A DNA stretch of 64,000 nt, from the NCBI RefSeq assembly GCF_024700885.2, contig NZ_CP117016.1; one strand, given 5' to 3'. The notes under the pieces are model-generated. The model worked only from the letters and a program-made list of their open reading frames with translations, was not told the origin of the DNA and did no database searches. The first letter of the stretch is position 1. The number at the start of each line of letters is the position of its first letter. Position numbers and translations under genes: made by a program. Positions 22,972 to 43,370 of this stretch are shown one piece after another. Source of the DNA: Escherichia coli (GTDB lineage Bacteria; Pseudomonadota; Gammaproteobacteria; Enterobacterales; Enterobacteriaceae).

Positions 22972-23021
22972 ATGAGTGCAATAGAAAATTTCGATGCCCA
23001 TACGCCCATGATGCAGCAGTA
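22972..23021 (+). pseudogene. mutS: Orphaned original 5' end of mutS (first 17 codons, [17 protein letters not shown]) displaced by the island
   Basis: Sequence encodes the native MutS N-terminus as I recall it and then diverges abruptly into AT-rich island DNA; the frame ends after 17 further island codons. Confidence 0.8.
22999..23021. repeat. Left copy of the imperfect direct repeat flanking the island (attL candidate)
   Basis: CATACGCCCATGATGCAGCAGTA; 19 of 23 positions match the right copy at 40836-40858, with an identical ATGATGCAGCA core. Confidence 0.65.
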
Positions 23022-23079: not shown

Positions 23080-23100
23080 CTGGTTTACTGATGGTATACA
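23080..23100. repeat. Tandem CTGGTTTAC / TGGTATACA motifs at the island left end (candidate integrase arm-type sites)
   Basis: The same TGGTATAC/TATACCAG motif recurs three times next to the integrase gene at the right end. Confidence 0.4.
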
Positions 23101-28894: not shown

Positions 28895-29308
28895 TTATTT
28901 TTTGTTTTTGGGAAAAATTTGATCTTCTCTAATACATTTACCATATGCAACCATTTGAAGATCTCTAACCATAAGTAGAAGCCTGTTATTTTCACTAACT
29001 AACCTCGAATTTTCTGTTTCTAATTTACTGATTTTATTCGAAGCATAGGCAAGACTTTGAGGACTTTTAATATGCTTAACAGTTTCACCTTTAGTTCTCT
29101 TTTTCTGCTGATATGCATAAGCTATTACTGTATGTCTTGAAAGAGCCTGTCTCGTTGGTTTTTTACCGAAATGATCCTCTACGGAATCACAAAGACTGAC
29201 CCAAGTTAAATCGCCTTCCCAGCCATTTATTTTATCGAGAACGAATTCAATATCTTCCTTGTTAAACTTTTTACTCATTATGTTCTCCTCTAAGATAATA
29301 ACTAACAA
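28895..29308 (-). CDS. Small coiled-coil protein co-operonic with the recombinase trio (real start possibly MSKKFNKED at 29278)
   Basis: 137-aa ORF overlapping the stop of the upstream recombinase; C-terminal heptad-like KISKLETENSRLVSENNRLLLMVRDLQ. Confidence 0.5.
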   Translation of the reverse strand: MLVIILEENIMSKKFNKEDIEFVLDKINGWEGDLTWVSLCDSVEDHFGKKPTRQALSRHTVIAYAYQQKKRTKGETVKHIKSPQSLAYASNKISKLETENSRLVSENNRLLLMVRDLQMVAYGKCIREDQIFPKNKK

Positions 29309-30917
29309 TATGATTTATAATTTTACTAACTTCTTGGATTTCCTTTTCAACATAATTCGCTTTCTGTGAATTATATTGGCTTCTGTATAAATTATTCTTT
29401 TCTTCAAGCGTTTGTAAATGGTCTTTAATTTTGCAAATAATATCATCCTTACTCCCTCCACCTAAATCAGAAATCATTTCATCAGCAAATAATACTCTTC
29501 GTTCGTTTTGTCGCAACTCCTCCCAAGTTCGGTTATCATACACATTATTTTGTTCAACATTTTTCCTCCCTGACCAAAAAGCTATTTCTATATCAGAGAG
29601 CATAGCTCTTTGAGCAAGAGTGTTTAAAAGATGTCTTGGCTGATGACTACTAAAAATCTCTTTCATACCATTGGGTTGTAATGTTTTATGTCGTTGAAAA
29701 AAATTTAAGGTAGTTTCTTTTTCTGACCTTTTTTTAAAATCAGCAATAAACATCTTTTTATTTGCGGGTAAGACACAGAATAAATCAATTCCTTTCTTTA
29801 AATGTAATTGATCTTTATTTAGGATTAACAATCTATTACTAAGGTTTATAGATTTTGAAAATTCATCCCAAGATTTTGTTTTATCGCTATAATTAAAAAC
29901 TTCATTCCAAAATTCTTTTGCACTAAGAATCCCACTCTCTACCCTCATTAATATATTTTTAGTTTTAACATTGAAGCAGTCCATACAGTTTAGATTTAAA
30001 AGCTTATACAACTTTGTATGAAAATATCGTCCATTCTCATCAGTCTCTAAACTCTTATAAAACTCCAATTCTCCTTTTTCTCGTAGGGTAGCTATGCACC
30101 TTGCCGTTTGTGATAATACCCTTAATCTTTTAATGGCTAATTTTGCTATTGAATGCATATTCCTTGGAATCCACTTTATACTTTCACCATAGCCTTTTGC
30201 ACTATGATAACGAATGCCATAGGAGCCTTTCCCCTCTATGTCGTTCCCTTCAACTTCACAATCCACCTCAAGACTCAGGACTTCTGATATTCGTGTTGGA
30301 GCACAAAGAAGCAGTGCGATGATAGATGTTGTAAATATATCTCTTTGGCTTTTATCATTAGAACTAAAAACCCTACCAACAAGATCTATGACTTCCTCTT
30401 CTGGTAACTTATTTTTAATTTCTTTTTGCCCTATAAGATCTCTTACAGCTTTATTTCTAATTATTCTAAGCCTGGAGTTAAACTTACTTAATTTTGGATT
30501 TATTATGTTATTTATAGCTAACACTTCTAAAATATTCTTTAATGCCTTTTCAATAGCCCCCGCACGACTATTAGAATATTTCTTTTCTACTTGGAATAAA
30601 ATGTTGTTGATAACCTCAGAATTAATATTAACAATATGTGGTTCTACATTCAAAGTGAAGAATGAACTTTCCATAATTTTTATGACCGCCAAATAAAGTA
30701 ATGATTTACTGAGATTAGGGAAACACTCTCTATATATAATAACCTTTGATAATTGTTGAAAATGCGCTCCCATGTCTTTATCTTTTTTTATATGATTGTT
30801 ATTTTTAAATGAAACCCCTCTACCCCATGACAAATCATCCCAATTTATAATATTTTCTTTTTTTGCCTGTATCCTTACTTCATTAGCTAAAACATCATAA
30901 TTATTATAATGACTCAT
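29271..30917 (-). CDS. Tyrosine recombinase family protein (third of three tandem paralogues)
   Basis: 548-aa ORF; candidate catalytic residues in order: R in CAPTRISEVLSL, HQPRHLL (HxxR), W in FWSGRK, Y in NNVYDNR. Confidence 0.6.
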   Translation of the reverse strand: MSHYNNYDVLANEVRIQAKKENIINWDDLSWGRGVSFKNNNHIKKDKDMGAHFQQLSKVIIYRECFPNLSKSLLYLAVIKIMESSFFTLNVEPHIVNINSEVINNILFQVEKKYSNSRAGAIEKALKNILEVLAINNIINPKLSKFNSRLRIIRNKAVRDLIGQKEIKNKLPEEEVIDLVGRVFSSNDKSQRDIFTTSIIALLLCAPTRISEVLSLEVDCEVEGNDIEGKGSYGIRYHSAKGYGESIKWIPRNMHSIAKLAIKRLRVLSQTARCIATLREKGELEFYKSLETDENGRYFHTKLYKLLNLNCMDCFNVKTKNILMRVESGILSAKEFWNEVFNYSDKTKSWDEFSKSINLSNRLLILNKDQLHLKKGIDLFCVLPANKKMFIADFKKRSEKETTLNFFQRHKTLQPNGMKEIFSSHQPRHLLNTLAQRAMLSDIEIAFWSGRKNVEQNNVYDNRTWEELRQNERRVLFADEMISDLGGGSKDDIICKIKDHLQTLEEKNNLYRSQYNSQKANYVEKEIQEVSKIINHIVSYYLRGEHNE

Positions 30918-32274
30918 TATTCATGCCCTCCTTGTTGAGCAATTCGATTATTTTATTTATTTTACATTCTAACATTGTGAATAAGTCCGTTAGGATTTCA
31001 AAGTCTGCTTGCTTCGTATAATCTGCTATTAATACTCCAGTAAGCTTTTTTATGATTATCAAATCGTCAACCAATCTAAGGGTAATGTCGTCACTGTTTT
31101 TTAAAAATGAGGAAATATAAGGGCTTACTAACTCATTTATTGCCTGATCTATTCTGAATGAAAACTCTTCATTGTTTTTTGCATACGACAATACTGATTT
31201 CAAATTGCTATGATCTAAAGCTTTTGCTATCGTACCTAATCCATAACCTTTAAGTGCAAGCCTTGTGGCTAATGTAACCCTAAGTTGCCGAGAGTTAATC
31301 TTTTTATTTTTATCTTTACTTACCCTTTGGCAAATGGCCTGAACCCTACCGGTTATCCTCTTAGAACTCATATGCAAATTGAAGAAGTTATTTTCATATA
31401 ATTTATCAAGTTTGTAAGTCGAGTTAAAAAAACAAGGATCAATAAAGAGGGGTAAATTGTTTAATTCATCTTCACTTAATATATCGCCTACCTCACCCTG
31501 CACAAAAACCTTAACTACTGATTTAAGCTCTGATAGTGAATTGAACAAATTATCCCCTATACGCAATTCGGAAAAATCAGTTCTGAAACTATCTCCTTGT
31601 TTTAATCTGGGTATGTTTAAAAAATTACCATTTTCTTTGATATAAAGATCCTTCCTTTTTAATTGAGCGATCTGCATTGGTCTTCGCCCCGAATATATCA
31701 TCAGCATGACTAAAAGGTAGTCATTCATAGTCATATTTCCATCATTGTATTCCTTTGTCATGCCCCCAATTAGGTTCTTCAGTTCGTATTCAGATAATGG
31801 TCTTAAAGACTCTTTTCGCTCAATATATGCAGTTGTCTTGTTGGGTTTAGTTACTTTCCATTTTAAAATCAAATCCAGCATTTCTTGATCTATGAATTCA
31901 TTATTTAACTCATAATGTTTTATTATAAAATACTTTAAACTTTCAACATGTGTATAGCTTATTTTATAATATGCATTGTAAAATCTATTTAGTAATCCAT
32001 AGTCAAATTTGTCCAACTTCCCTTGATTAAAAACAACGAGTTTTTTTATAGAAAAGAAAAACTTTCTCGCATAAGCTGAACTAAAATTCACAGCAGTATA
32101 GGCAAGGGTCTCTTTTATAGATGCTAATAAGATAGCATTAATGTTTCTTTCAAAATATGAGAAATTTAATTTAACATCTTTGCTGAGAAACCAAACACTA
32201 TCATGTAAACTAAAATTATTTCTGCTGTCTTTTGCCTTTAATACCAAGTAATTTTCTAACATTAATGCTTTCAT
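30904..32274 (-). CDS. Tyrosine recombinase-like protein with degenerate catalytic motifs (second of three)
   Basis: 456-aa ORF; SGRRPMQIAQL (box I Arg), SRQLRVTLATR, LDHSNLKSVLSYAKN; overlaps both neighbours. Confidence 0.5.
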   Translation of the reverse strand: MKALMLENYLVLKAKDSRNNFSLHDSVWFLSKDVKLNFSYFERNINAILLASIKETLAYTAVNFSSAYARKFFFSIKKLVVFNQGKLDKFDYGLLNRFYNAYYKISYTHVESLKYFIIKHYELNNEFIDQEMLDLILKWKVTKPNKTTAYIERKESLRPLSEYELKNLIGGMTKEYNDGNMTMNDYLLVMLMIYSGRRPMQIAQLKRKDLYIKENGNFLNIPRLKQGDSFRTDFSELRIGDNLFNSLSELKSVVKVFVQGEVGDILSEDELNNLPLFIDPCFFNSTYKLDKLYENNFFNLHMSSKRITGRVQAICQRVSKDKNKKINSRQLRVTLATRLALKGYGLGTIAKALDHSNLKSVLSYAKNNEEFSFRIDQAINELVSPYISSFLKNSDDITLRLVDDLIIIKKLTGVLIADYTKQADFEILTDLFTMLECKINKIIELLNKEGMNNESL

Positions 32275-33508
32275 CTATTTCTCCTTCAATTTTATTTATG
32301 ATTTCTTGATTCACTAAATCTGCCTCTTCAAAAGCTTTTAAAGTTTCTTCACTAATATAACGATTGTTATAAATCAAAGCCGTTTTGGAGTTCATTTTCC
32401 ACCCCATTCTTACGCATCTGATTCTATCTAATTGGGTCAATCTATATTGATCAGTGACTCCTATGTATTTTAAACTGTAAATATAGTTCCATGTGTGCCG
32501 TAGACAATGCCCTGTGAAATTTTGAAAAGATACTCCATTGAATTCAATTCTACTTATTTGCTTAATTACTTTATGATATGCACTTATTGACAGAGGAAAT
32601 CCTTCCGTAGGACCAGATTTTTGAGTAATAAATAAGTAATTATGATTTAAGCTTTTCGAATAGAAAGACCTATCATTGTCTATATATGAAGAGATTTGCA
32701 TAGACAATTTTTTGCTAATATTTAATTCTCGTTCAAATGTTTTAACAAGTGGTTGAAAAACTCTTGGGTCTGCTGGATCATTTATTCTTTTACAAACTTT
32801 CAGATATCTTTTTTCCTTGTTAAAATCAGTAATTTTCAAGTTCAATAGCTCACCCCCTCGCATTCCAGTTTCCTGAAGAATGAGGATTATGAGTTGATTT
32901 CTTTTACGGCAACTGATATCAACAAATGGATTGTATTGGCTTTCAGGTTCTATACATTGCAATAGAATGTCTAAGCTTTCTTTTTCTAATGATTTAAAAT
33001 CATTATTCAAATAGAATTGAGAGTTTAATTTTGGTTTATGTTTACGAAAAAGCAAACTAACACTTTTTGATATAATGTTTGTCTCATATATTGTAGTGCT
33101 AAAATATGATTCATAAATCCAAGAAATGTAGGAACTAATTACTGTCAATCTATAATGAAGATTTTCTTGATTGATCTTTTTATACTCTTTTATATCTATA
33201 ACTTTTTGTTTTTTATTTTTAACTCTAAGTTGTTCTGACAATGAATAGATTTCAGTAAAGCTAAGGAAGGTCTTAGATCTAATTCTTTCGATAAGATTTA
33301 TATTTGATTCTATTAGATAATTTTCAAAAGCAATCAAAGTGTAAGCATTTCTCAATACTGTATTAAATGACTTATTCTTTTGCTTATATAGCAAACTAAG
33401 ATATATATTTTGATAATACAATGGCAAACCGTTTTTTGAATCCAAAATCATACAAAATCTGCTTCCATCACTCGCCATTAACTTCTTTACTGAATATCTC
33501 CTATTCAT
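32216..33508 (-). CDS. Tyrosine recombinase family protein (first of three; start set at MNRRYSVKKL after a GGGGTGA RBS, ORF extends to 33547)
   Basis: GMRGGELLNL (box I Arg), HCLRHTW (HxxR), GWKMNS, ALIYNNRY (Tyr) in canonical order. Confidence 0.65.
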   Translation of the reverse strand: MNRRYSVKKLMASDGSRFCMILDSKNGLPLYYQNIYLSLLYKQKNKSFNTVLRNAYTLIAFENYLIESNINLIERIRSKTFLSFTEIYSLSEQLRVKNKKQKVIDIKEYKKINQENLHYRLTVISSYISWIYESYFSTTIYETNIISKSVSLLFRKHKPKLNSQFYLNNDFKSLEKESLDILLQCIEPESQYNPFVDISCRKRNQLIILILQETGMRGGELLNLKITDFNKEKRYLKVCKRINDPADPRVFQPLVKTFERELNISKKLSMQISSYIDNDRSFYSKSLNHNYLFITQKSGPTEGFPLSISAYHKVIKQISRIEFNGVSFQNFTGHCLRHTWNYIYSLKYIGVTDQYRLTQLDRIRCVRMGWKMNSKTALIYNNRYISEETLKAFEEADLVNQEIINKIEGEIDESINVRKLLGIKGKRQQK

Positions 33509-33626
33509 TATCACCCCATAATTTATTTTTTTATTTATAGGTAACATAATTTTTTAGCAAGTTACAAATTTATTTGCTATTATTTTCAATGACCTTATTA
33601 CTCGCGACTCTAATAAAGAATCGGCC

Positions 33627-33652
33627 ATATATTCACCTTAAGGTGAATATAT
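33627..33652. promoter_or_regulatory. Perfect palindrome ATATATTCACC-TTAA-GGTGAATATAT between the recombinase operon and the tRNA genes
   Basis: 11-bp arms with a 4-bp spacer read directly; function (operator or recombination site) not determined. Confidence 0.5.
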
Positions 33653-33680: not shown

Positions 33681-33757
33681 GCGGTAGTAGTTCAGTTGGT
33701 CAGAATATTCCCCTGTCACGGGAATGGTCGTGGGTTCGAGTCCCATCTATCGCGCCA
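33681..33757 (+). tRNA. tRNA-Asp (anticodon GUC), foreign island-borne copy
   Basis: Manual cloverleaf: acceptor GCGGTAG/CTATCGC, D stem GTTC/GAAT, anticodon stem TTCCC/GGGAA with loop CUGUCAC, T loop TTCGAGT, 3' GCCA; differs from my recollection of the host tRNA-Asp. Confidence 0.8.
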
Positions 33758-33761
33758 GAAA

Positions 33762-33836
33762 GGGCAATTAACTCATTGGTAGAGTGTATCTCTTACAAAG
33801 ATATGGCGGTTGGTTCGATTCCAACATTGCCCACCA
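33762..33836 (+). tRNA. tRNA-Val (anticodon UAC), foreign island-borne copy
   Basis: Manual cloverleaf: acceptor GGGCAAT/ATTGCCC, D stem ACTC/GAGT, anticodon stem TATCT/AGATA with loop CUUACAA, T stem GTTGG/CCAAC, 3' ACCA. Confidence 0.8.
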
Positions 33837-34104: not shown

Positions 34105-34680
34105 ATGGTACGAAAAATCTCTACATTTTTAAAGATAATAGGAGTTATAGGTTCTTTATGCGGGATTATTGCGACAGTATTCACAATCTATGCGTACTAC
34201 AACCCGACCTCCCCTTCTACTCAGAGATATGACAGTATTGTAGGAAGCTGGCTATCTGATTACTCTTACACCGTAAAAGGGAATACCGTTAGGGTTAATG
34301 GAAAAACGACCTTCTTCTCTAATGGAAAATACAACTTTCATGGCAGTATCTCTATTGACTCTAATGCTCCAGGTGACCATATATTAATAGATTATCTTTC
34401 TGATGGTGCTGGTGATTGGGAACTATATGATAATGAGTTAATTACATCATTAAATAGCCTAAAAACAAAACCTATGAAGCTGGCTTTAAATAACGAAGAT
34501 CTTGATCCACTGAAAATAGAGGTGATAAACAATAAAAAGTTACCAACTATTGAGGAGAATATGGCTGATGGGAAAAACCAATCCTATAAAATAATAAAAT
34601 CTTCAAAAAGCCAGTTAACATTGGAGGTTATTAACGAAATCGGAAGCAATTTCAACTTTACTATGCAAAAAACAAAATAG
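34105..34680 (+). CDS. Hypothetical membrane-anchored or secreted protein
   Basis: 191-aa ORF with an N-terminal hydrophobic segment followed by a Ser/Thr/Asn-rich domain. Confidence 0.45.
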   Translation: MVRKISTFLKIIGVIGSLCGIIATVFTIYAYYNPTSPSTQRYDSIVGSWLSDYSYTVKGNTVRVNGKTTFFSNGKYNFHGSISIDSNAPGDHILIDYLSDGAGDWELYDNELITSLNSLKTKPMKLALNNEDLDPLKIEVINNKKLPTIEENMADGKNQSYKIIKSSKSQLTLEVINEIGSNFNFTMQKTK

Positions 34681-34711
34681 AAATGATGGCGATCTGAAAT
34701 CGCCATCATTT
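34681..34711. terminator. Perfect 13-bp stem hairpin, bidirectional terminator between the convergent 191-aa ORF and the helicase gene
   Basis: AAATGATGGCGAT-CTGAA-ATCGCCATCATTT with A/T runs on both sides, filling the gap between two stop codons. Confidence 0.75.
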
Positions 34712-34712
34712 T

Positions 34713-36560
34713 TCAACCTTGATAATCTTCAGCCTCGATACCACAATAAGTTATCATGTTTGTTATTAACGGTATATCATTACAATTCTGCTTGAAAGAC
34801 CTGCCATAACTATTGTTTCTTATTTTACAACGAGTCATTAATACTTCTTCAATGGCTCTTGAAAATGCCACAAAGACTGTTTTTTGATTTTCTATTTGCT
34901 CTTCTTCTTTACCAAAATAGGCACCAGGTTCAAGCCCCACAACGATGACCTTCCTGAACTCTAACCCTTTACTTTTATGGATGGTCATAAGAGGTATTGT
35001 TTTATTGCCAAGTAATAAATCAATGGCTTCTGATGTGTTTTCTTTTACATCTAACTTATCGAGGTGGCGAGAAAGTAATTCTATGCTATATTCTAAAACA
35101 TTCCCACTCATATACTGCGGAAAGTAAGACTTTATTTTATCGACACCAAATATACTTAATAATGAATATAAATAATCGACAATTTCTCCTTTAATTACCC
35201 GATGAGATTTAATAAACTGGCTAAGTTCTTTTTCTAACCGTGTAACATCACCTCTTTTACTTACTCCTCTTATATTACATAGAAGCTCCATTGTAGTGGC
35301 CCAGCTTTCTATGGATTTTCTATTACAGACAAACATTAGCATTTGTAAAAGTAACTGTACTACAGCTTCATTTAAAAGATCCTGATACTCGTTCTCAAGG
35401 CGACATTGTATTTTCAAATATTGCAATGCTGAAATGATATCGTCTGTATATTGTTTAGCCGGGTTTCTTAGCAGTATACATATATCTCTTTCATTTACTC
35501 CTTCAGCAATCCATTGCTGGATACATAATGCTATATATGCCCCTTCAATACTACTTTCGTCAAATTGTAGTAACTTAGCTGAACCTTCATTTTCAATCAA
35601 CATCATATCAGGCTTTATATCAGCATGATTCATGAAAGCTTCCATCATGCGTTGATAATTTATGAGGTTTTTTAATGACCTTCTATTGCTAACTAATTCA
35701 TTAGATTGTTCGATTCCAAAATCTTTTTTAAACACATCAAAAGCATTGTGCATTGCACCTGCCCAACCCATTATTCTTTGTTTTGTATCACCGACTGCTG
35801 TTATTTTTATTTTTTTACCCAAGAAAATGCTCTTAAAAATCTCATATTGCCTATATGTTGTGTCCTGAAACTCATCGATAAAAGCATAGTCATATGTTGA
35901 ATTTATAGCATTAGATAAATATTGATTCCTACTAATAATATAATTAGCAAGAAAATTAATCATCTTGAATGAAATCCTTGATTTTGGTTTTAATAAGTGT
36001 AACCACACAAACCGTCTTATCCTGCCATCAACAGAATGTTCTAATGCTTTATTATAAGGAGTTACTATATAATTCTCTTCAAAATTATAAGGTTGTAATT
36101 TATTTAATTCTTCAGATGTTAAACCTTCAAAGCCTACGGCCTCTCTTTTAATTTCTTCAACTAAATCATTATTATTTGGAAAGATTATTTCATAGTCATT
36201 TGATGGACGATAAGATTCCGGAATAGTGCTTTTAAAGCGATCAACAATACTTTTACAGAATGCATCAAATGTTGTTGATTCAAATTTGTGTCTATATTTT
36301 GTATCAAGCCGTGAGTTTACTCTATCTTGAAGATTTTTGGCCGCATCTTTTTTAAAGGATAATGCAATTATTTTTTTATTGCTGCATTTTCCTGTCTCAA
36401 TCAAGAAACAAGCTTTCTGAGCCAATAATTCTGTTTTACCTGCACCGGGACCAGCAAGAACGAGATTATGCCCTGTACTATTTCGAATTACCCTCATAGC
36501 CTCGTCTTCTACTTCTTGGATATCCTTTAAAACCCAATCGGCATCTTTAATAGTCGGCAT
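34713..36560 (-). CDS. gajB: UvrD/PcrA-like superfamily 1 helicase, Gabija GajB-like
   Basis: 615-aa ORF with Walker A (LAGPGAGKTELL), DEFQDTT motif and C-terminal HKSKGLEF motif; start codon shares one nucleotide with the upstream ATPase stop. Confidence 0.65.
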   Translation of the reverse strand: MPTIKDADWVLKDIQEVEDEAMRVIRNSTGHNLVLAGPGAGKTELLAQKACFLIETGKCSNKKIIALSFKKDAAKNLQDRVNSRLDTKYRHKFESTTFDAFCKSIVDRFKSTIPESYRPSNDYEIIFPNNNDLVEEIKREAVGFEGLTSEELNKLQPYNFEENYIVTPYNKALEHSVDGRIRRFVWLHLLKPKSRISFKMINFLANYIISRNQYLSNAINSTYDYAFIDEFQDTTYRQYEIFKSIFLGKKIKITAVGDTKQRIMGWAGAMHNAFDVFKKDFGIEQSNELVSNRRSLKNLINYQRMMEAFMNHADIKPDMMLIENEGSAKLLQFDESSIEGAYIALCIQQWIAEGVNERDICILLRNPAKQYTDDIISALQYLKIQCRLENEYQDLLNEAVVQLLLQMLMFVCNRKSIESWATTMELLCNIRGVSKRGDVTRLEKELSQFIKSHRVIKGEIVDYLYSLLSIFGVDKIKSYFPQYMSGNVLEYSIELLSRHLDKLDVKENTSEAIDLLLGNKTIPLMTIHKSKGLEFRKVIVVGLEPGAYFGKEEEQIENQKTVFVAFSRAIEEVLMTRCKIRNNSYGRSFKQNCNDIPLITNMITYCGIEAEDYQG

Positions 36561-38548
36561 TAAAGTAATCCTCTTACTGTTTCGATAATTTCATTAAGAA
36601 CTTCAGGACTATCATCTCTTAACTTATCGTCTTCCATTTTTGATAGAACATAATTGTGCGATAATGGTTTACCTCTTCCTAAAAATAGGTAACGATACCA
36701 AAAATATTTTTCATAATCATCGAACTCACTAATATCAATATCTTTCTCTTCTTTTTTCAAAACTGCAGCAATTGCCGATTTAACTTTATTATCATATTCA
36801 TGATCGTCATCTTTTGGCAATCTTGGCCCACCATTTTTGGGAACAAATGTCTTATAATCCTCAAAGAATTTATTAAGCATTAGCCAATCTAAATCGTAGG
36901 GGTAAGAAAAATAAACATTATAATCTTTTAGACAATTAATCCATGCCGATTCATTATCTTGATCCTCATCCCATGTATGCATTTTTTCAAGCTCTTCATC
37001 ACTTAAAGTTCCTGAAGTAATACTTAACAATTCATTTTTATCTGCACCTATAGATATTAATTGTTTGACTGCATATTTAATTCTTCCCCAACCACCACCT
37101 CCTCCTCTCTTGAAATCATAGTCGAGAAGAGTCACATGTGGAATTGAAAGCTCATTGAGTAACTTCCAAAAATGATTAACATATCGCCCTCCTAATGGAG
37201 CAAATGTTATCAATGAAGTGTCAAGCTCTATACCATTTACTTGAGCTATTTTAGGTATTACTATTTCTTCGCTATCACCTTCACCAAGTATTACAACTTT
37301 TGCAAAATAAATTTCTGGATATGCCTTCACTGCTTCTTTTACATAAGTGAAAGTATCAACATTGTCTCCATCGTCTTCATCTTCGCTTGGTAATAATATT
37401 GGTTTGACAACAGTATTTTTATTATCATGTAGACGAAAATACCTTATATTTTCTGGTTCTACTCTATTGAGTAATGAAGGTGCGTGTGTTGTTAAAACAA
37501 CCTGTGCTCGATCATTCTCAGATATATCTTCACATAGTTTAACTATTCTTCCTAAATATTGGGGTGAAAGATGATTTTCTGGTTCTTCGATTAATATTAT
37601 CGTTAAATTTGGAGGATCTAATGCTTCTACTGATATTGATAATTCATTTTCTCCTGAATTAATGATCTCATCTTCAATATCAAATGCAGATTTGACTAAC
37701 GAAAGATAAAACAATGACTTCATACCATCACTCAATCTTTCAGTTGGTAATGGCTGAGTCACCGGAGTAGGCATAAATACAGTATCTATATGCTTTAATA
37801 CATCTTCTATTCCATTCATTACTGGCTGAATTTTAAGCTGTTCAAAATACCCTCCGCTAAAAAGAGTTTTCCAATTTCTGCCCAATGAAGATGTTATTGT
37901 CTGAACCCCAATTTCTTCTTGGAACTGGTTTCCGATTGATTCTGCAACCTCATCAACCGTTGAACTCATCTGTTCAGACCATTCAACTGCATTTATCAAA
38001 CGGTGCATGATGGTTCCGGCTGTTTGCTTCAGTTGTTGAGCAGGATCGCGATAAGCAGGGACATAATGAACATGGATTTTTGATCTTTCATATGCTGTAA
38101 TATTTTTTTCATATTCTCCTATTTCCCATACTAAATCACTATCTATATCCCCTTCTGCAAGATTAGTTTTTGTCCATTTAGCTTTTAATTTTGCTATACA
38201 GTATGGGATCTGGTCTGCTTCATTTGAGACCAAATGCTTAAAGAAATCAGCGACTGAATCGTCCTCACCATCTTGCAGATCTGCAAATTCAAATTTTACA
38301 CGAACTGATAATTCTCTTTCATCTTGAGTATCGATTTCATCTCCAGGAGGAACATAAAAATCATCAACTTGAACAATTCTATCGGAGCTTTTGACACCAA
38401 ACATCCTTGTCAATGCGAGGAGAACAGCCGTCTTACCTGTTCCATTCCCTCCAATTAAGCTGGTGAATGAATTTATATTTATAGTTTGCCCTACATTATC
38501 AAAGCTCTTAAAACCTTTGATCTCCATTTGTGTAATTTTCATTATCAC
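36560..38548 (-). CDS. gajA: OLD-family ATPase-TOPRIM nuclease, Gabija GajA-like
   Basis: 662-aa ORF with ABC-type Walker A (LIGGNGTGKTAVLL), Walker B and H-loop region (IILIEEPENHLSP) and a C-terminal TOPRIM-like VVILGEGDSEE. Confidence 0.65.
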   Translation of the reverse strand: MIMKITQMEIKGFKSFDNVGQTININSFTSLIGGNGTGKTAVLLALTRMFGVKSSDRIVQVDDFYVPPGDEIDTQDERELSVRVKFEFADLQDGEDDSVADFFKHLVSNEADQIPYCIAKLKAKWTKTNLAEGDIDSDLVWEIGEYEKNITAYERSKIHVHYVPAYRDPAQQLKQTAGTIMHRLINAVEWSEQMSSTVDEVAESIGNQFQEEIGVQTITSSLGRNWKTLFSGGYFEQLKIQPVMNGIEDVLKHIDTVFMPTPVTQPLPTERLSDGMKSLFYLSLVKSAFDIEDEIINSGENELSISVEALDPPNLTIILIEEPENHLSPQYLGRIVKLCEDISENDRAQVVLTTHAPSLLNRVEPENIRYFRLHDNKNTVVKPILLPSEDEDDGDNVDTFTYVKEAVKAYPEIYFAKVVILGEGDSEEIVIPKIAQVNGIELDTSLITFAPLGGRYVNHFWKLLNELSIPHVTLLDYDFKRGGGGGWGRIKYAVKQLISIGADKNELLSITSGTLSDEELEKMHTWDEDQDNESAWINCLKDYNVYFSYPYDLDWLMLNKFFEDYKTFVPKNGGPRLPKDDDHEYDNKVKSAIAAVLKKEEKDIDISEFDDYEKYFWYRYLFLGRGKPLSHNYVLSKMEDDKLRDDSPEVLNEIIETVRGLL

Positions 38549-39195
38549 CTCAATTGCTGTTTTAAAAAATTATAATCACTAATTATTTCTGCGTTTGTAA
38601 TGATTTCTTGTGAGCACAGCTTAAAACATTCTAAAAATATATTTTTATTATCGTTATGTTCCCAATGTTTTTTCAAAGCTTCTTCAATTGAAATCCAAAT
38701 AACTTGAAAATCGTTATTAGATATTTGGCTTGTTAAAACTGTTTCTTCCACACAAAGTATATGCCCTAAGATGACATCATCGTATATGTCAGTATCTGAA
38801 TCTCTAACTCCTAACCTTTTTATTTTCCTTTTTTGGATGATTTTATTTTTAACAATAAAAGGATGTTCTTCTATAAAATCGGTCAATGATGTAAAAGCCA
38901 AGCCACGAACCTGAGCACCATGCATTGAACTATTTACTTTATGGATATCTCTCCAAACTCGCAGATCACCTAATACATAGAGAACCCGCTGATTTCTCGC
39001 TTTCGTATCTTCTGCTTGGTATTGGATATAAGGTGGCCCTCCCCCATTTTGTCTATATCGGGCAAGGGTTTTGATGCTTATGCCAAGAAAGACAGAAGCA
39101 AGCTCACTATTTACAGTGGCAGAATCAGGCATTTGACCAAATAGTTTCCATACCTCTGAATACTCCCGCAAAACTTCCACCACACTCATCTTCAC
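38545..39195 (-). CDS. Uncharacterised protein with an N-terminal HTH-like motif, translationally coupled between the integrase and the ATPase (possible true start at ATG 39189)
   Basis: 216-aa ORF; ELASVFLGISIKTLARYRQNGGGPP resembles excisionase/AlpA-type HTH; its start overlaps the integrase stop and its stop overlaps the ATPase start (ATGA). Confidence 0.5.
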   Translation of the reverse strand: MKMSVVEVLREYSEVWKLFGQMPDSATVNSELASVFLGISIKTLARYRQNGGGPPYIQYQAEDTKARNQRVLYVLGDLRVWRDIHKVNSSMHGAQVRGLAFTSLTDFIEEHPFIVKNKIIQKRKIKRLGVRDSDTDIYDDVILGHILCVEETVLTSQISNNDFQVIWISIEEALKKHWEHNDNKNIFLECFKLCSQEIITNAEIISDYNFLKQQLR

Positions 39196-40655
39196 TCCCT
39201 CGTTTCAGGTAATGGAGGATACTTAGCCGAAGCAAGTAACACATTGTATAATTTAGGAGCAGTCATAAGCATATGCAACTCAATCCTTTGTAATGCTTCA
39301 AAAATCCGTTCTTGATCAGGTTCTGCATACCTTTCTGTTGGATCTGTTGTATTTCTGTGATTGAGCAGTCTCTTAACGACGGCATATGAAACAAGTTCTT
39401 CAGCAACCCTACCAAATGTCCTTCGTAGATCATGCATACCAAGCTTCAGGATTCCCGCCTCTTGGCAGATATATTCCCTTAGACTTTTACTATCGGAATA
39501 GTGACCAACTTTACTTCGAGAAGAACGGGCCGGGAAAACCCACTTCTGTTTGTCCTTCTGGGTTACCGTATCGTTTACTATGTCTCTTCTATCTTCCAAA
39601 ATTCTTTTGACAGCATCACAAATCGGAAGCTCGTGATCGTTTCGATTCTTAGTGTCGTAAAAACGGATAGTTCTGTTACTCAGGTCAACATAGCTTGTCG
39701 TTTTAGCTTCTTCCTTTGTAAGAGACTCTCGCCAACACAGAGAAGCTGTTTCTTCCTTACGAGCACCTAAGAGAACGGTAAGTAGCAGATAATCGCACCC
39801 AAGCCGGTTGAAGCTTCTCTTGTTGAACAATGCAGTCAAGAACCGACCAAGTGTATCCTTTGGTGATAAGGGGTTTCTGACACCTTTTGCCCGATAACTA
39901 TCCTCAAGCTCAGAACGTGTCCTAAACTTTTTCTGTACCTTTAAGATACTGAAAGGGTTGTAAGATAGAGAAGGTTGTCGTTGCTGGGTCTGAGCATTCC
40001 CAGCTTCAATCTCTATTGCGTGTTTTACAGCAACATTCGCCCACCTAAAGGTCTGTTCCGCTGCTGTTCTGGCTCTTGAAGCAATCTCATCAAACTTCCT
40101 AAGAATTTCATTACCAGTAAGATCTTTAACTCGCAAACCAGCCCACTCAGAAAGCCTGTTTTCTGCTTTATCTAATACAGCCAAGGTGTTGGGTTTAGCT
40201 GGTTTCGCTCTACCCAGCAGATGCTGGCGGTATTGTGCAAACACTTCACTGATAGTGAGTTCAGAAGCATCGGACTCCCGTTTTATTTTGTTAGGGTTCC
40301 TTTTGGTCAACTTCATGGTTTGAACTAAATTGCGAGCAACCTCGCGGGCTTGATCGATGTTAGCGAAATCAGAGACATTGCCAATTGTAGACCTGATAAC
40401 CTCAGATGGGGATTTTCCCCCTGTCTTAGGGCGATTGCCAGGAGAAGAGACTCGTCGCTGAACGATATAGGTCTTTTTCGTTGCACTGATTTTGACACCA
40501 AAACCAACGGGTGAATCCCGGTGATTATCAGTGATAAGATACGGTTTTCGCTCTGGATTGGGTAAGTAGACTACTCTGCCTTGCGGATCAAGGCTCGGTT
40601 TCACGTCGATAGATAACTTATTGATTATAATCGACTGATTGAGTGTCATTTTCAT
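39192..40655 (-). CDS. Tyrosine integrase, P4-like family with N-terminal arm-binding domain (ORF extends to 40763; start set at MKMTLNQ)
   Basis: Box I LLGARKEETASL, HDLRRTFG (HxLR) and C-terminal NHRNTTDPTERY; lies at the island border next to the target gene. Confidence 0.8.
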   Translation of the reverse strand: MKMTLNQSIIINKLSIDVKPSLDPQGRVVYLPNPERKPYLITDNHRDSPVGFGVKISATKKTYIVQRRVSSPGNRPKTGGKSPSEVIRSTIGNVSDFANIDQAREVARNLVQTMKLTKRNPNKIKRESDASELTISEVFAQYRQHLLGRAKPAKPNTLAVLDKAENRLSEWAGLRVKDLTGNEILRKFDEIASRARTAAEQTFRWANVAVKHAIEIEAGNAQTQQRQPSLSYNPFSILKVQKKFRTRSELEDSYRAKGVRNPLSPKDTLGRFLTALFNKRSFNRLGCDYLLLTVLLGARKEETASLCWRESLTKEEAKTTSYVDLSNRTIRFYDTKNRNDHELPICDAVKRILEDRRDIVNDTVTQKDKQKWVFPARSSRSKVGHYSDSKSLREYICQEAGILKLGMHDLRRTFGRVAEELVSYAVVKRLLNHRNTTDPTERYAEPDQERIFEALQRIELHMLMTAPKLYNVLLASAKYPPLPETRE

Positions 40656-40660
40656 CGATG

Positions 40661-40716
40661 TATACCAGTGGTTCAAGTGTGTATACCAGATAGTAGCTAG
40701 AATACTTCTGGTATAC
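40661..40716. promoter_or_regulatory. Three copies of TATACCAG, including a 10-bp inverted repeat GTATACCAGA...TCTGGTATAC, between the integrase start and mutS
   Basis: Read directly; candidate integrase operator or arm sites, overlapping a possible -10 (TAGAAT) for the rewired mutS. Confidence 0.5.
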
Positions 40717-40787
40717 AAATTTATGGGTTTATGTGAGTTTAAAGGGGTATCACTTGGGGCCACATAAGTACTCAGAAGACTTTAAAA

Positions 40788-43370
40788 ATGAGTAAAATCA
40801 ATATGAAAGAGTCTGCAAGCAAGGATCTATCAGACCACACTCCTATGATGCAGCAATATCTCAAGCTGAAAGCCCAGCATCCCGAGATCCTGCTGTTTTA
40901 CCGGATGGGTGATTTTTATGAACTGTTTTATGACGACGCAAAACGCGCGTCGCAACTGCTGGATATTTCACTGACCAAACGCGGTGCTTCGGCGGGAGAG
41001 CCGATCCCGATGGCGGGGATCCCCTACCATGCGGTGGAAAACTACCTCGCCAAACTGGTGAATCAGGGCGAGTCCGTTGCCATCTGCGAACAAATTGGCG
41101 ATCCGGCGACCAGCAAAGGTCCGGTTGAGCGCAAAGTTGTGCGTATCGTTACGCCAGGCACCATCAGCGATGAAGCCCTGTTGCAGGAGCGTCAGGACAA
41201 CCTGCTGGCGGCTATCTGGCAGGACAGCAAAGGTTTCGGCTACGCGACGCTGGATATCAGTTCCGGGCGTTTTCGCCTGAGCGAACCGGCTGACCGCGAA
41301 ACGATGGCGGCAGAGCTGCAACGCACTAATCCGGCAGAGCTGTTGTATGCAGAAAATTTCGCCGAGATGTCGCTGATTGAAGGTCGTCGCGGACTGCGCC
41401 GTCGCCCGCTATGGGAGTTTGAAATCGACACCGCGCGCCAGCAGTTGAATCTGCAATTTGGCACCCGCGATCTGGTCGGTTTTGGCGTCGAGAACGCGCC
41501 GCGCGGACTTTGTGCTGCCGGTTGTCTGTTGCAGTATGCGAAAGATACCCAACGTACGACTCTGCCGCATATTCGTTCCATCACCATGGAACGTGAGCAG
41601 GACAGCATCATTATGGATGCCGCGACGCGTCGTAATCTGGAAATCACCCAGAACCTGGCGGGTGGTGCGGAAAATACGCTGGCTTCTGTGCTCGACTGCA
41701 CCGTCACGCCGATGGGCAGCCGTATGCTGAAACGCTGGCTGCATATGCCAGTGCGCGATACCCGCGTCTTGCTTGAGCGCCAGCAAACTATTGGCGCATT
41801 GCAGGATTTCACCGCCGAGCTGCAGCCGGTACTGCGTCAGGTCGGCGACCTGGAACGTATTCTGGCGCGTCTGGCTTTACGAACTGCTCGCCCACGCGAT
41901 CTGGCCCGTATGCGTCACGCTTTCCAGCAACTGCCGGAGCTGCGTGCGCTATTAGAAAATGTCGATAGCGCTCCGGTACAGGCGCTGCGTGAAAAAATGG
42001 GCGAGTTTGCCGAGCTGCGCGATCTGCTGGAGCGAGCAATCATCGACACACCGCCAGTGCTGGTACGCGACGGTGGTGTTATCGCACCGGGCTATAACGA
42101 AGAGCTGGATGAGTGGCGCGCGCTGGCTGACGGCGCGACCGATTATCTGGAGCGTCTGGAAGTCCGCGAGCGTGAACGTACTGGCCTGGACACCCTGAAA
42201 GTCGGCTTTAACGCGGTTCATGGTTATTACATTCAGATCAGCCGTGGACAAAGCCATCTGGCACCCATCAATTACATGCGTCGCCAGACGCTGAAAAACG
42301 CCGAGCGCTACATTATTCCAGAGCTAAAAGAGTACGAAGACAAAGTTCTCACTTCAAAAGGCAAAGCACTGGCACTGGAAAAACAGCTTTATGAAGAGTT
42401 GTTCGACCTGCTGTTGCCGCATCTGGAAGCGTTGCAACAGAGCGCGAGCGCGCTGGCGGAACTCGACGTGCTGGTGAACCTGGCAGAACGGGCCTATACG
42501 CTGAACTACACCTGCCCGACCTTTATTGATAAACCGGGTATTCGCATCACCGAAGGCCGCCATCCGGTGGTTGAACAGGTGCTGAATGAGCCGTTTATCG
42601 CCAACCCGCTGAACCTGTCGCCGCAGCGTCGCATGTTGATCATTACCGGTCCGAATATGGGCGGTAAAAGTACCTATATGCGCCAGACCGCACTGATTGC
42701 GCTGATGGCCTACATCGGCAGCTATGTACCGGCACAAAAAGTCGAGATTGGACCTATCGATCGCATCTTTACCCGCGTAGGGGCAGCGGATGATCTGGCA
42801 TCCGGGCGTTCAACCTTTATGGTGGAAATGACCGAAACCGCCAATATTTTACATAACGCCACCGAGTACAGTCTGGTGCTGATGGATGAGATTGGGCGCG
42901 GGACGTCCACTTACGATGGTCTGTCGCTGGCGTGGGCGTGCGCGGAAAATCTGGCGAATAAGATTAAAGCGTTGACACTGTTTGCCACCCACTATTTCGA
43001 GCTGACCCAGTTACCGGAGAAAATGGAAGGCGTCGCCAACGTGCATCTCGATGCGCTGGAGCACGGCGACACCATTGCCTTTATGCACAGCGTGCAGGAT
43101 GGCGCGGCGAGCAAAAGCTACGGCCTGGCGGTTGCAGCTCTGGCAGGCGTGCCAAAAGAGGTTATTAAGCGCGCACGGCAAAAACTGCGTGAGCTGGAAA
43201 GCATTTCGCCGAACGCCGCCGCTACGCAAGTGGATGGTACGCAAATGTCTTTGCTGTCAGTGCCAGAAGAAACGTCGCCTGCGGTCGAGGCACTGGAAAA
43301 CCTCGACCCGGATTCACTGACTCCGCGTCAGGCGCTGGAGTGGATTTATCGCTTGAAGAGTCTGGTGTAA
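40788..43370 (+). CDS. mutS: DNA mismatch repair protein MutS with an island-encoded replacement N-terminus
   Basis: 860-aa ORF; matches the MutS sequence as I recall it from HTPMMQQYL onward (Walker [10 protein letters not shown] present), but the first 16 residues [16 protein letters not shown] are encoded by island DNA. Confidence 0.93.
40836..40858. repeat. Right copy of the imperfect direct repeat flanking the island (attR candidate), inside the mutS coding sequence
   Basis: CACACTCCTATGATGCAGCAATA; 19 of 23 positions match 22999-23021. Confidence 0.65.

Follow-up and report, generated by a model that had tools for sequence, protein, structure and literature searches.

The integrase-coupled gene next to Gabija in an Escherichia coli mutS island is probably an island core gene and a putative recombination directionality factor

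When a gene is packed between the integrase of a genomic island and a defense system, does it belong to the defense system or to the island? The question is raised by a 64,000-nucleotide (nt) stretch of Escherichia coli chromosomal DNA (contig NZ_CP117016.1 of RefSeq assembly GCF_024700885.2), all of which we refer to as the window. On its minus strand, a tyrosine integrase gene (int) is followed by a gene for a 214-amino-acid (aa) protein and then by gajA and gajB, the ATPase and helicase genes of a Gabija system. An initial annotation, made without database searches, read the four genes as one transcription unit and proposed the protein as a new Gabija partner, either a third component or a regulator, or alternatively as a directionality factor. 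Based on sequence comparisons, we think it probable that the gene belongs to the core of a family of integrative mobilizable islands found in the Enterobacterales, whose insertion site is the 5' end of mutS, that it is no part of Gabija, and that it encodes the recombination directionality factor (RDF) of the integrase.

The succession of integrase, open reading frame (ORF), ATPase, and helicase is present on the minus strand as annotated, and the two genes described as Gabija-like are full-length members of the GajA and GajB families (Table 1). PF00589 was found in the integrases of all homologous loci. The gene boundaries were redrawn. Longest-ORF calls on the minus strand gave an integrase of 523 aa (39192..40763), a 216-aa ORF (38545..39195), an ATPase (36560..38548), and a helicase (34713..36560), and the overlapping stop/start codons (GTGA) reported for this locus arise only with the GTG starts of those calls. 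ATG starts are used by RefSeq and by 15/15 aligned family members, in which M1 is invariant. For the 214-aa gene, the ATG at 39189 lies two codons past the GTG and is preceded by the Shine-Dalgarno sequence GGGAG, while gajA starts at 38542 with GAGG upstream. The length of 216 aa and the overlapping codons were thus reported because the first GTG had been taken as the start. With ATG starts, 2 nt separate the integrase from the 214-aa gene and another 2 nt separate the latter from gajA; base 36560 is common to gajA and gajB. The tight packing therefore stands and so does the ORF, at 214 rather than 216 aa, while the overlaps do not.

The 214-aa ORF is a real, conserved gene under purifying selection. 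In comparisons with relatives, the ratio of nonsynonymous to synonymous substitution rates (dN/dS) was 0.11 to 0.24 for the whole gene, 0.05 for its N-terminal half (against locus L060, with dS saturated in the other informative comparisons), and 0.23 to 0.42 for its C-terminal half. Together with conservation over more than 150 clusters at 50% identity, these values rule out a pseudogene or a chance ORF.

Homologs of the protein were found throughout one family of islands. A sequence search returned 195 clusters, mostly from the Enterobacterales, at about 50% identity over almost the full length, and an exhaustive search of 50%-identity representatives returned 153, mostly of 180 to 220 aa. 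We then scanned one genome per species with a 15-sequence alignment as the query, which yielded 18 loci in Escherichia-related genera, Erwinia, Yersinia, Pantoea, Rahnella, Dickeya, Photorhabdus, and others. The order mutS, integrase, 214-aa-gene homolog was found in all 18, as far as each locus extends. Likewise, every protein-cluster context that we examined had a tyrosine integrase of about 485 aa adjoining mutS, with the homolog after the integrase. The gene was present in every examined island of this mutS-inserting family, usually 2 nt from the integrase gene or in short overlap with it. Even homologs at 39% and 34% identity overlap the integrase stop codon, and in locus L064 the integrase again abuts mutS; the neighbors of these distant relatives are ankyrin, TrfA, or TrwC genes, with no defense genes among them. 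The gene and its cognate tyrosine recombinase lie on an integrated element with defined ends, and the element has the features of a mutS-targeting mobilizable island: an integrase that abuts mutS, direct repeats at the two ends, variable cargo, and a relaxase homolog in related islands.

Gabija is one of many cargoes in these islands. Cargo was found on either side of the 214-aa gene, which therefore separates two cargo slots. Slot 1, the interval between integrase and gene, holds QatABCD, Hachiman, ToxN, or a pair of 594- and 516-aa proteins without a PADLOC match, all on the same strand. Slot 2, on the 3' side of the gene, holds Gabija, DRT3 (Drt3a and Drt3b), a convergent retron I-B, a 527-aa protein without a Pfam or PADLOC match, or convergent ORFs that include a DUF4238 protein. 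Gabija lies 2 nt downstream of the gene in the window because the cargo slot begins at the gene's 3' end. Among the 18 species loci, only 2 carried Gabija, namely, Dickeya undicola and a contig labeled as a Bacteroidales metagenome-assembled genome. In complete E. coli genomes, the N-terminal half of the gene was found in 84, and the full gene with the window's Gabija lineage was found in only 13.

Searches within E. coli were uninformative as to whether Gabija depends on the gene, with 13/13 genomes carrying the same island. The question was settled by a Pantoea context together with a plasmid search. Pantoea agglomerans has GajA and GajB proteins with 88% identity to the window's, and their island is a different one that lacks mutS and has a P4-type integrase. 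There, DNA homology to the window sets in 34 nt ahead of the 214-aa gene's stop codon; of that gene, nothing but the last 11 codons is present, along with the gajA ribosome-binding site. By tblastn (E ≤ 1e-3), homologs of the 214-aa protein were found in 0/72,556 plasmids and 0/50,697 phage records; GajA homologs were found on 313 of those plasmids, none of which carried a homolog of the 214-aa protein. Conversely, an E. coli lineage (L029 to L031) has an intact 214-aa gene followed by a 16-codon gajA stub (MKITQVESEGFKTFVI*) and then unrelated DNA, an arrangement indicating that Gabija was lost and the gene kept. The protein had no match among the Gabija models of PADLOC (E ≤ 0.01), and the available parts of the published structural reports describe Gabija as GajA4-GajB4 with no third subunit (PMC10822852, PMC10781630). 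Co-occurrence with the ATPase/helicase pair, the check proposed in the initial annotation, was thus not found over independent contexts (0/313 plasmids, Pantoea without the gene, and Gabija in 2/18 loci), nor outside this island family. The same annotation had stated that wide occurrence beside integrases without adjacent defense genes would count against a new Gabija partner. Because homologs follow mutS-adjacent integrases with many other cargoes or none, that idea is abandoned. The 214-aa gene is very probably no part of Gabija, which is interchangeable cargo here, and the Gabija of the window is an ordinary two-gene system.

What does the protein do for the island? An AlphaFold model with a mean predicted local distance difference test score of 90.9 shows a helix at residues 3 to 19 and a winged helix that extends to about residue 95, followed by a second domain. 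The helix-turn-helix motif noted in the initial annotation (LGISIKTLARYRQNGGGPP) is present and falls inside this winged helix, which is of the excisionase type. When the family profile was searched against solved structures, there was one convincing match, the RdfS excisionase (8dgl; E = 8.9e-8, residues 26 to 82). In the remote-homology and structure checks that had been suggested, the N-terminal domain thus fell into the excisionase/MerR-type winged helix-turn-helix (wHTH) class, and RdfS of ICEMlSymR7A is its closest solved relative. HTH_17 (PF12728) was detected in 19/69 family members at E ≤ 1e-3 and in 43/69 at E ≤ 0.1. This N-terminal part is 63 to 80% identical throughout the Enterobacterales, irrespective of cargo. 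The C-terminal part evolves fast, with 22 to 35% identity between lineages.

As the initial annotation had said, the rest of the protein contains no nameable motif; it matched nothing in Pfam, NCBIfam, or PADLOC. Searches with the single protein also returned nothing from PADLOC (E ≤ 0.01) or NCBIfam and, from PHROGs, a weak match to a family of unknown function (E = 0.0088). We tested for the layout of WYL/BrxR/CapW-type proteins, a wHTH followed by a WYL domain, and it was absent. For ten other island ORFs, the PHROGs matches were confined to two families of unknown function and included no excisionase family. In the literature, we found no paper on the 214-aa protein or on a three-gene Gabija.

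RdfS (8dgl; PMC9527761, PMC11963761) resembles the 214-aa protein in having a winged helix with an extra N-terminal helix ahead of it and in being encoded on an integrative element with a tyrosine recombinase. RdfS binds attP and its own promoter, and its extra N-terminal helix is needed for oligomerization and excision (PMC11963761). However, RdfS is a single-domain protein of about 90 aa, whereas the 214-aa protein has an added C-terminal domain of about 110 residues; the function of RdfS was shown by experiment, whereas the 214-aa protein is known here from sequence and model; and RdfS belongs to a rhizobial integrative and conjugative element rather than an enterobacterial mobilizable island. 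The AlpA-family/HTH_17 excisionases (GIsul2 Xis [8c3t], Tn916 Xis, TorI, Pukovnik Xis, and lambda Xis) share the HTH_17 domain found in part of the family and a gene that adjoins the integrase gene. In contrast to them, the 214-aa protein has twice the usual length, and its gene follows int within one operon, while theirs are upstream or divergent.

By homology, fold, and position, we conclude with moderate confidence that the most likely role of the protein is that of the integrase's directionality factor and/or a regulator of its operon, which adopts the other option of the initial annotation. The protein would act alongside the integrase, directing Int toward excision by binding and bending DNA close to the ends of the island. 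Candidates for its binding sites, or for integrase-arm sites, are the TGGTATACA repeats, which occur in 4 copies in the 64 kb, at the island ends only, where 0.26 are expected. Regulation of the int operon may be a further role of the protein, as it is for RdfS, Apl, and Cox. For the C-terminal domain, which ends in a long helix, the simplest role would be oligomerization.

Several observations weigh against this interpretation. Searched alone against Pfam, the 214-aa protein matched only HTH_17, at an i-E of 0.21, which is below significance. The Phage_AlpA profile of Pfam matched neither the protein nor its 69 relatives; the link to AlpA is structural only, through similarity to the AlpA-family excisionase 8c3t. 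A typical RDF is a single domain of 55 to 100 aa, compared with 214 aa and a second folded domain here. Only some related islands carry the TGGTATACA motif in its exact form, and many lack it. Furthermore, cargo parts the homolog from the integrase in several islands, so the link to int is not absolute. The remaining objections concern the C-terminal half, which has moved jointly with Gabija onto another island backbone and which occurs in a long form with Gabija in two diverged lineages; they are taken up below.

A rival explanation is that the protein regulates transcription of the island in the manner of AlpA and takes no part in recombination. Its wHTH would switch the int/cargo operon or the mobilization genes, and its C-terminal domain would sense a signal, such as a helper conjugative element or a phage. 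Although the nearest relatives of the protein in both sequence and structure are excisionases and not regulators, the fold class also holds pure regulators (BldC, the MerR family, PrtN, and AlpA), and RdfS itself regulates promoters (PMC11963761). A two-domain build is commoner in regulators than in excisionases, and a gene that borders both slots, ending slot 1 and heading slot 2, is well placed for control of cargo. Much of the slot-2 cargo is convergent, however, and therefore not drivable from the side of the 214-aa gene, and downstream of this gene we identified no operator-like repeat. We consider a purely regulatory role unlikely.

The C-terminal half has a history of its own. Its GC content is 0.27, compared with 0.43 for the integrase, 0.42 for the N-terminal half, and 0.34 for gajA. 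By blastn, homology between islands of differing cargo stops at nt 313 to 353 of the gene, corresponding to residues 105 to 118. In locus L024, identity to the window is 72% in the N-terminal half, where dS is saturated, and 93% in the C-terminal half, where dS is 0.14; gajA of the L024 island type (H17, the record behind L003) has 93.1% nucleotide identity to the window. The L024 gene is thus a mosaic joined at the domain boundary, in which the C-terminal half and Gabija moved together onto a different integrase/N-terminal backbone. Locus L020 carries a second, diverged Gabija lineage (GajA, 70%; GajB, 56%), and its gene likewise has the long form of 214 aa, including the 14-residue insertion; this form was seen only in the two Gabija lineages and in L029, which retains the gajA stub. 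As a separate observation, slot 1 of the island variant with the mosaic gene is occupied by a ToxN/AbiQ toxin gene (L003:13016-13522 and L024:7124-7630).

Despite its travels with Gabija, the C-terminal half does not co-diverge with GajA: in L020, GajA is 70% identical to that of the window and the C-terminal half is only 25% identical, no closer than the halves found beside unrelated cargo. Moreover, other C-terminal types are common to islands of differing cargo at 56 to 82% identity (DRT3 and DUF4238, the 527-aa protein and retron I-B, and retron I-B and a 327-aa protein). For these two reasons, the association between the C-terminal half and Gabija seems best explained by physical linkage, which would also be compatible with a functional tie. 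Cargo would be exchanged by homologous recombination that breaks inside the gene, just past the conserved N-terminal domain.

A bolder idea is that the C-terminal domain is a cargo-linked adaptor through which the state of the adjacent defense cargo, or an infecting phage, would influence island excision or int-operon expression. It would explain why slots lie on both flanks of the gene, why breakpoints fall at the domain boundary, and why the long form accompanies Gabija in two diverged lineages. We give this idea little credence; if true, the protein would represent a new kind of two-domain directionality factor or regulator that organizes a defense hotspot. A third component or dedicated regulator of this Gabija lineage, acting through a C-terminal domain that co-evolves with GajA and GajB, is highly improbable: a gap of 2 to 3 nt to gajA in every Gabija-carrying island including L020, the joint transfer in L024, the restricted long form, and the cargo-like GC content speak for it, but the Pantoea and plasmid contexts, the absence of a PADLOC model match, the survival of the gene after Gabija loss, the divergence in L020, the sharing of C-terminal types between cargoes, and the two-protein composition of the published complexes speak against it.

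If the 214-aa gene belongs to the island, what does its close coupling to gajA mean? No terminator-like site was found between the integrase start and the gajB stop; a strong one comes after gajB (Table 1). Promoter-like matches in this region numbered 19, compared with 27.8 in shuffles. We also considered an internal Gabija promoter, for which there was one 10/12 match at 38676-38647, and rejected it; such matches are rarer than in shuffles, and the stretch lies outside the Gabija block of Pantoea. With tight coupling and no terminator between the genes, co-transcription of int, the 214-aa gene, gajA, and gajB is plausible, and Gabija would probably be expressed by read-through from the int operon. 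To this extent, the single transcription unit proposed in the initial annotation remains credible; it reflects where the cargo landed and carries no sign of a functional partnership with Gabija.

The island forms a low-GC block at about 23.0 to 40.8 kb, between ygbA and mutS, with values of about 0.30 to 0.44 compared with 0.50 to 0.59 in most flanking windows. Its ends are marked by two copies of an 11-bp attachment (att) core, ATGATGCAGCA (Table 1). When the stub of mutS beyond the left end is rejoined to the resident gene, the resulting sequence is found unbroken, at 100% identity, in E. coli genomes that lack the island. The site is uninterrupted in 5,234/5,426 E. coli genomes and split in about 184. 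The N-terminus of the resident mutS is encoded by the island (40788-40855), which presumably also supplies its promoter. Insertion into the coding sequence could alter the expression of mutS.

Table 1. Positions of the genes, gene parts, and island-end sequences in the window
Feature	Coordinates	Strand	Evidence and remarks
Stub of native mutS 5' end	22972-23021
att core ATGATGCAGCA, left copy (11 bp)	23008..23018
TGGTATACA, fourth copy	23092-23100		Other island end, about 75 bp inside
Terminator-like hairpin	34681..34711	minus	14-bp stem; closes the int-214aa-gajA-gajB unit; common to the convergent 191-aa ORF
gajB, UvrD-type helicase (cargo)	34713..36560	minus	PADLOC GajB, E = 2.6e-198, full length
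gajA, OLD-family ATPase/TOPRIM nuclease (cargo)	36560..38542	minus	PADLOC GajA, E = 1.8e-240, full length
214-aa backbone gene	38545..39189	minus	RefSeq WP_032230126.1, 'hypothetical protein'; ORF, ATG, Shine-Dalgarno, family, purifying selection
C-terminal part, residues 106-214	38545..38874	minus	Long beta hairpin, small alpha/beta unit, 35-residue terminal helix; low GC
N-terminal part, residues 1-105	38875..39189	minus	Helix 3-19, then wHTH; integrase-like GC
Tyrosine integrase of the island, 487 aa	39192..40655	minus	ATG at 40655; PHROG integrase match, 1.1e-14; RefSeq
TGGTATACA, three copies	40659-40667, 40680-40688, 40709-40717		Between integrase start and mutS
att core ATGATGCAGCA, right copy (11 bp)	40845..40855		Inside mutS 5' coding region

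Several other parts of the island deserve description. On the minus strand at 28895-33547 are three tandem, overlapping recombinase-like genes, two with Phage_integrase matches (443 and 456 aa) and one without a Pfam match (548 aa), together with a 137-aa ORF. Their organization is that of a GInt/Tn6571-type module nested in the island, and some related islands do without it. Just upstream of the module is a 26-bp palindrome (33627-33652). Genes for tRNA-Asp(GTC) and tRNA-Val(TAC) lie inside the island at 33681-33836, in a stretch of about 250 bp that is absent from otherwise collinear related islands. On the plus strand at 34105-34680, a 191-aa ORF with a hydrophobic N-terminal stretch is convergent with gajB and has a terminator in common with it. 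This ORF accompanies the window's Gabija lineage into the Pantoea island (79% identity) and is lost in Pectobacterium; homologs at 40 to 46% identity occur in islands without Gabija, and no family match was found for it.

Among the slot occupants of related islands, the following had no PADLOC match and are candidates for unknown defense genes: the 527-aa protein (L008:8785-10368), which occurs in 398 assembly-index blocks, the pair of 594 and 516 aa (L047:5616-8970), the 327-aa protein (L039:9743-10726), a 376-aa protein (L036:9635-10765), and the DUF4238 protein (L012:9683-10660). Meanwhile, the contig labeled Bacteroidales (L033; JABUTT010000130.1) is only 6 kb long and carries an integrase/214-aa/Gabija block with 91 to 96% identity to the window for the integrase, the 214-aa protein, and GajA and 71% identity for GajB. 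It is probably a binning contaminant.

The island of the window is an element of E. coli defense hotspot #8 (mutS/ygbA), which Hochhauser et al. (2023) found occupied in 27/1,322 genomes (PMC10121019). The chromosomal site is the same, and in the present analysis it was interrupted in about 184/5,418 complete genomes; residents of the hotspot carry defense systems, and their paper describes GInt-type triple-recombinase modules. That study defined the hotspot by its flanking genes, however, and the text that we searched describes no insertion into the mutS coding sequence, no integrase-coupled 200-aa gene, and no pair of slots. A further parallel is provided by the cargo hotspots of P2 phages and P4 satellites (Rousset et al., 2022; PMC9122126), in which backbone genes also flank a short slot of exchangeable defense systems. 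Those elements are phages and satellites, whereas the present one is a relaxase-bearing mobilizable island, and here the breakpoint lies inside a backbone gene.

These results remove a false lead, since Gabija at this locus appears to have just its usual two genes. They show how a backbone gene packed closely into one operon with its cargo can give the false appearance of a multigene defense system. A family of integrase-coupled, excisionase-like proteins of about 200 aa with a second domain instead marks a widespread enterobacterial island, one that enters the coding sequence of mutS and rebuilds its 5' end. Because several slot occupants match no known defense family, the 214-aa gene, as a reliable anchor for two defense-cargo slots, could be used to mine for new defense genes.

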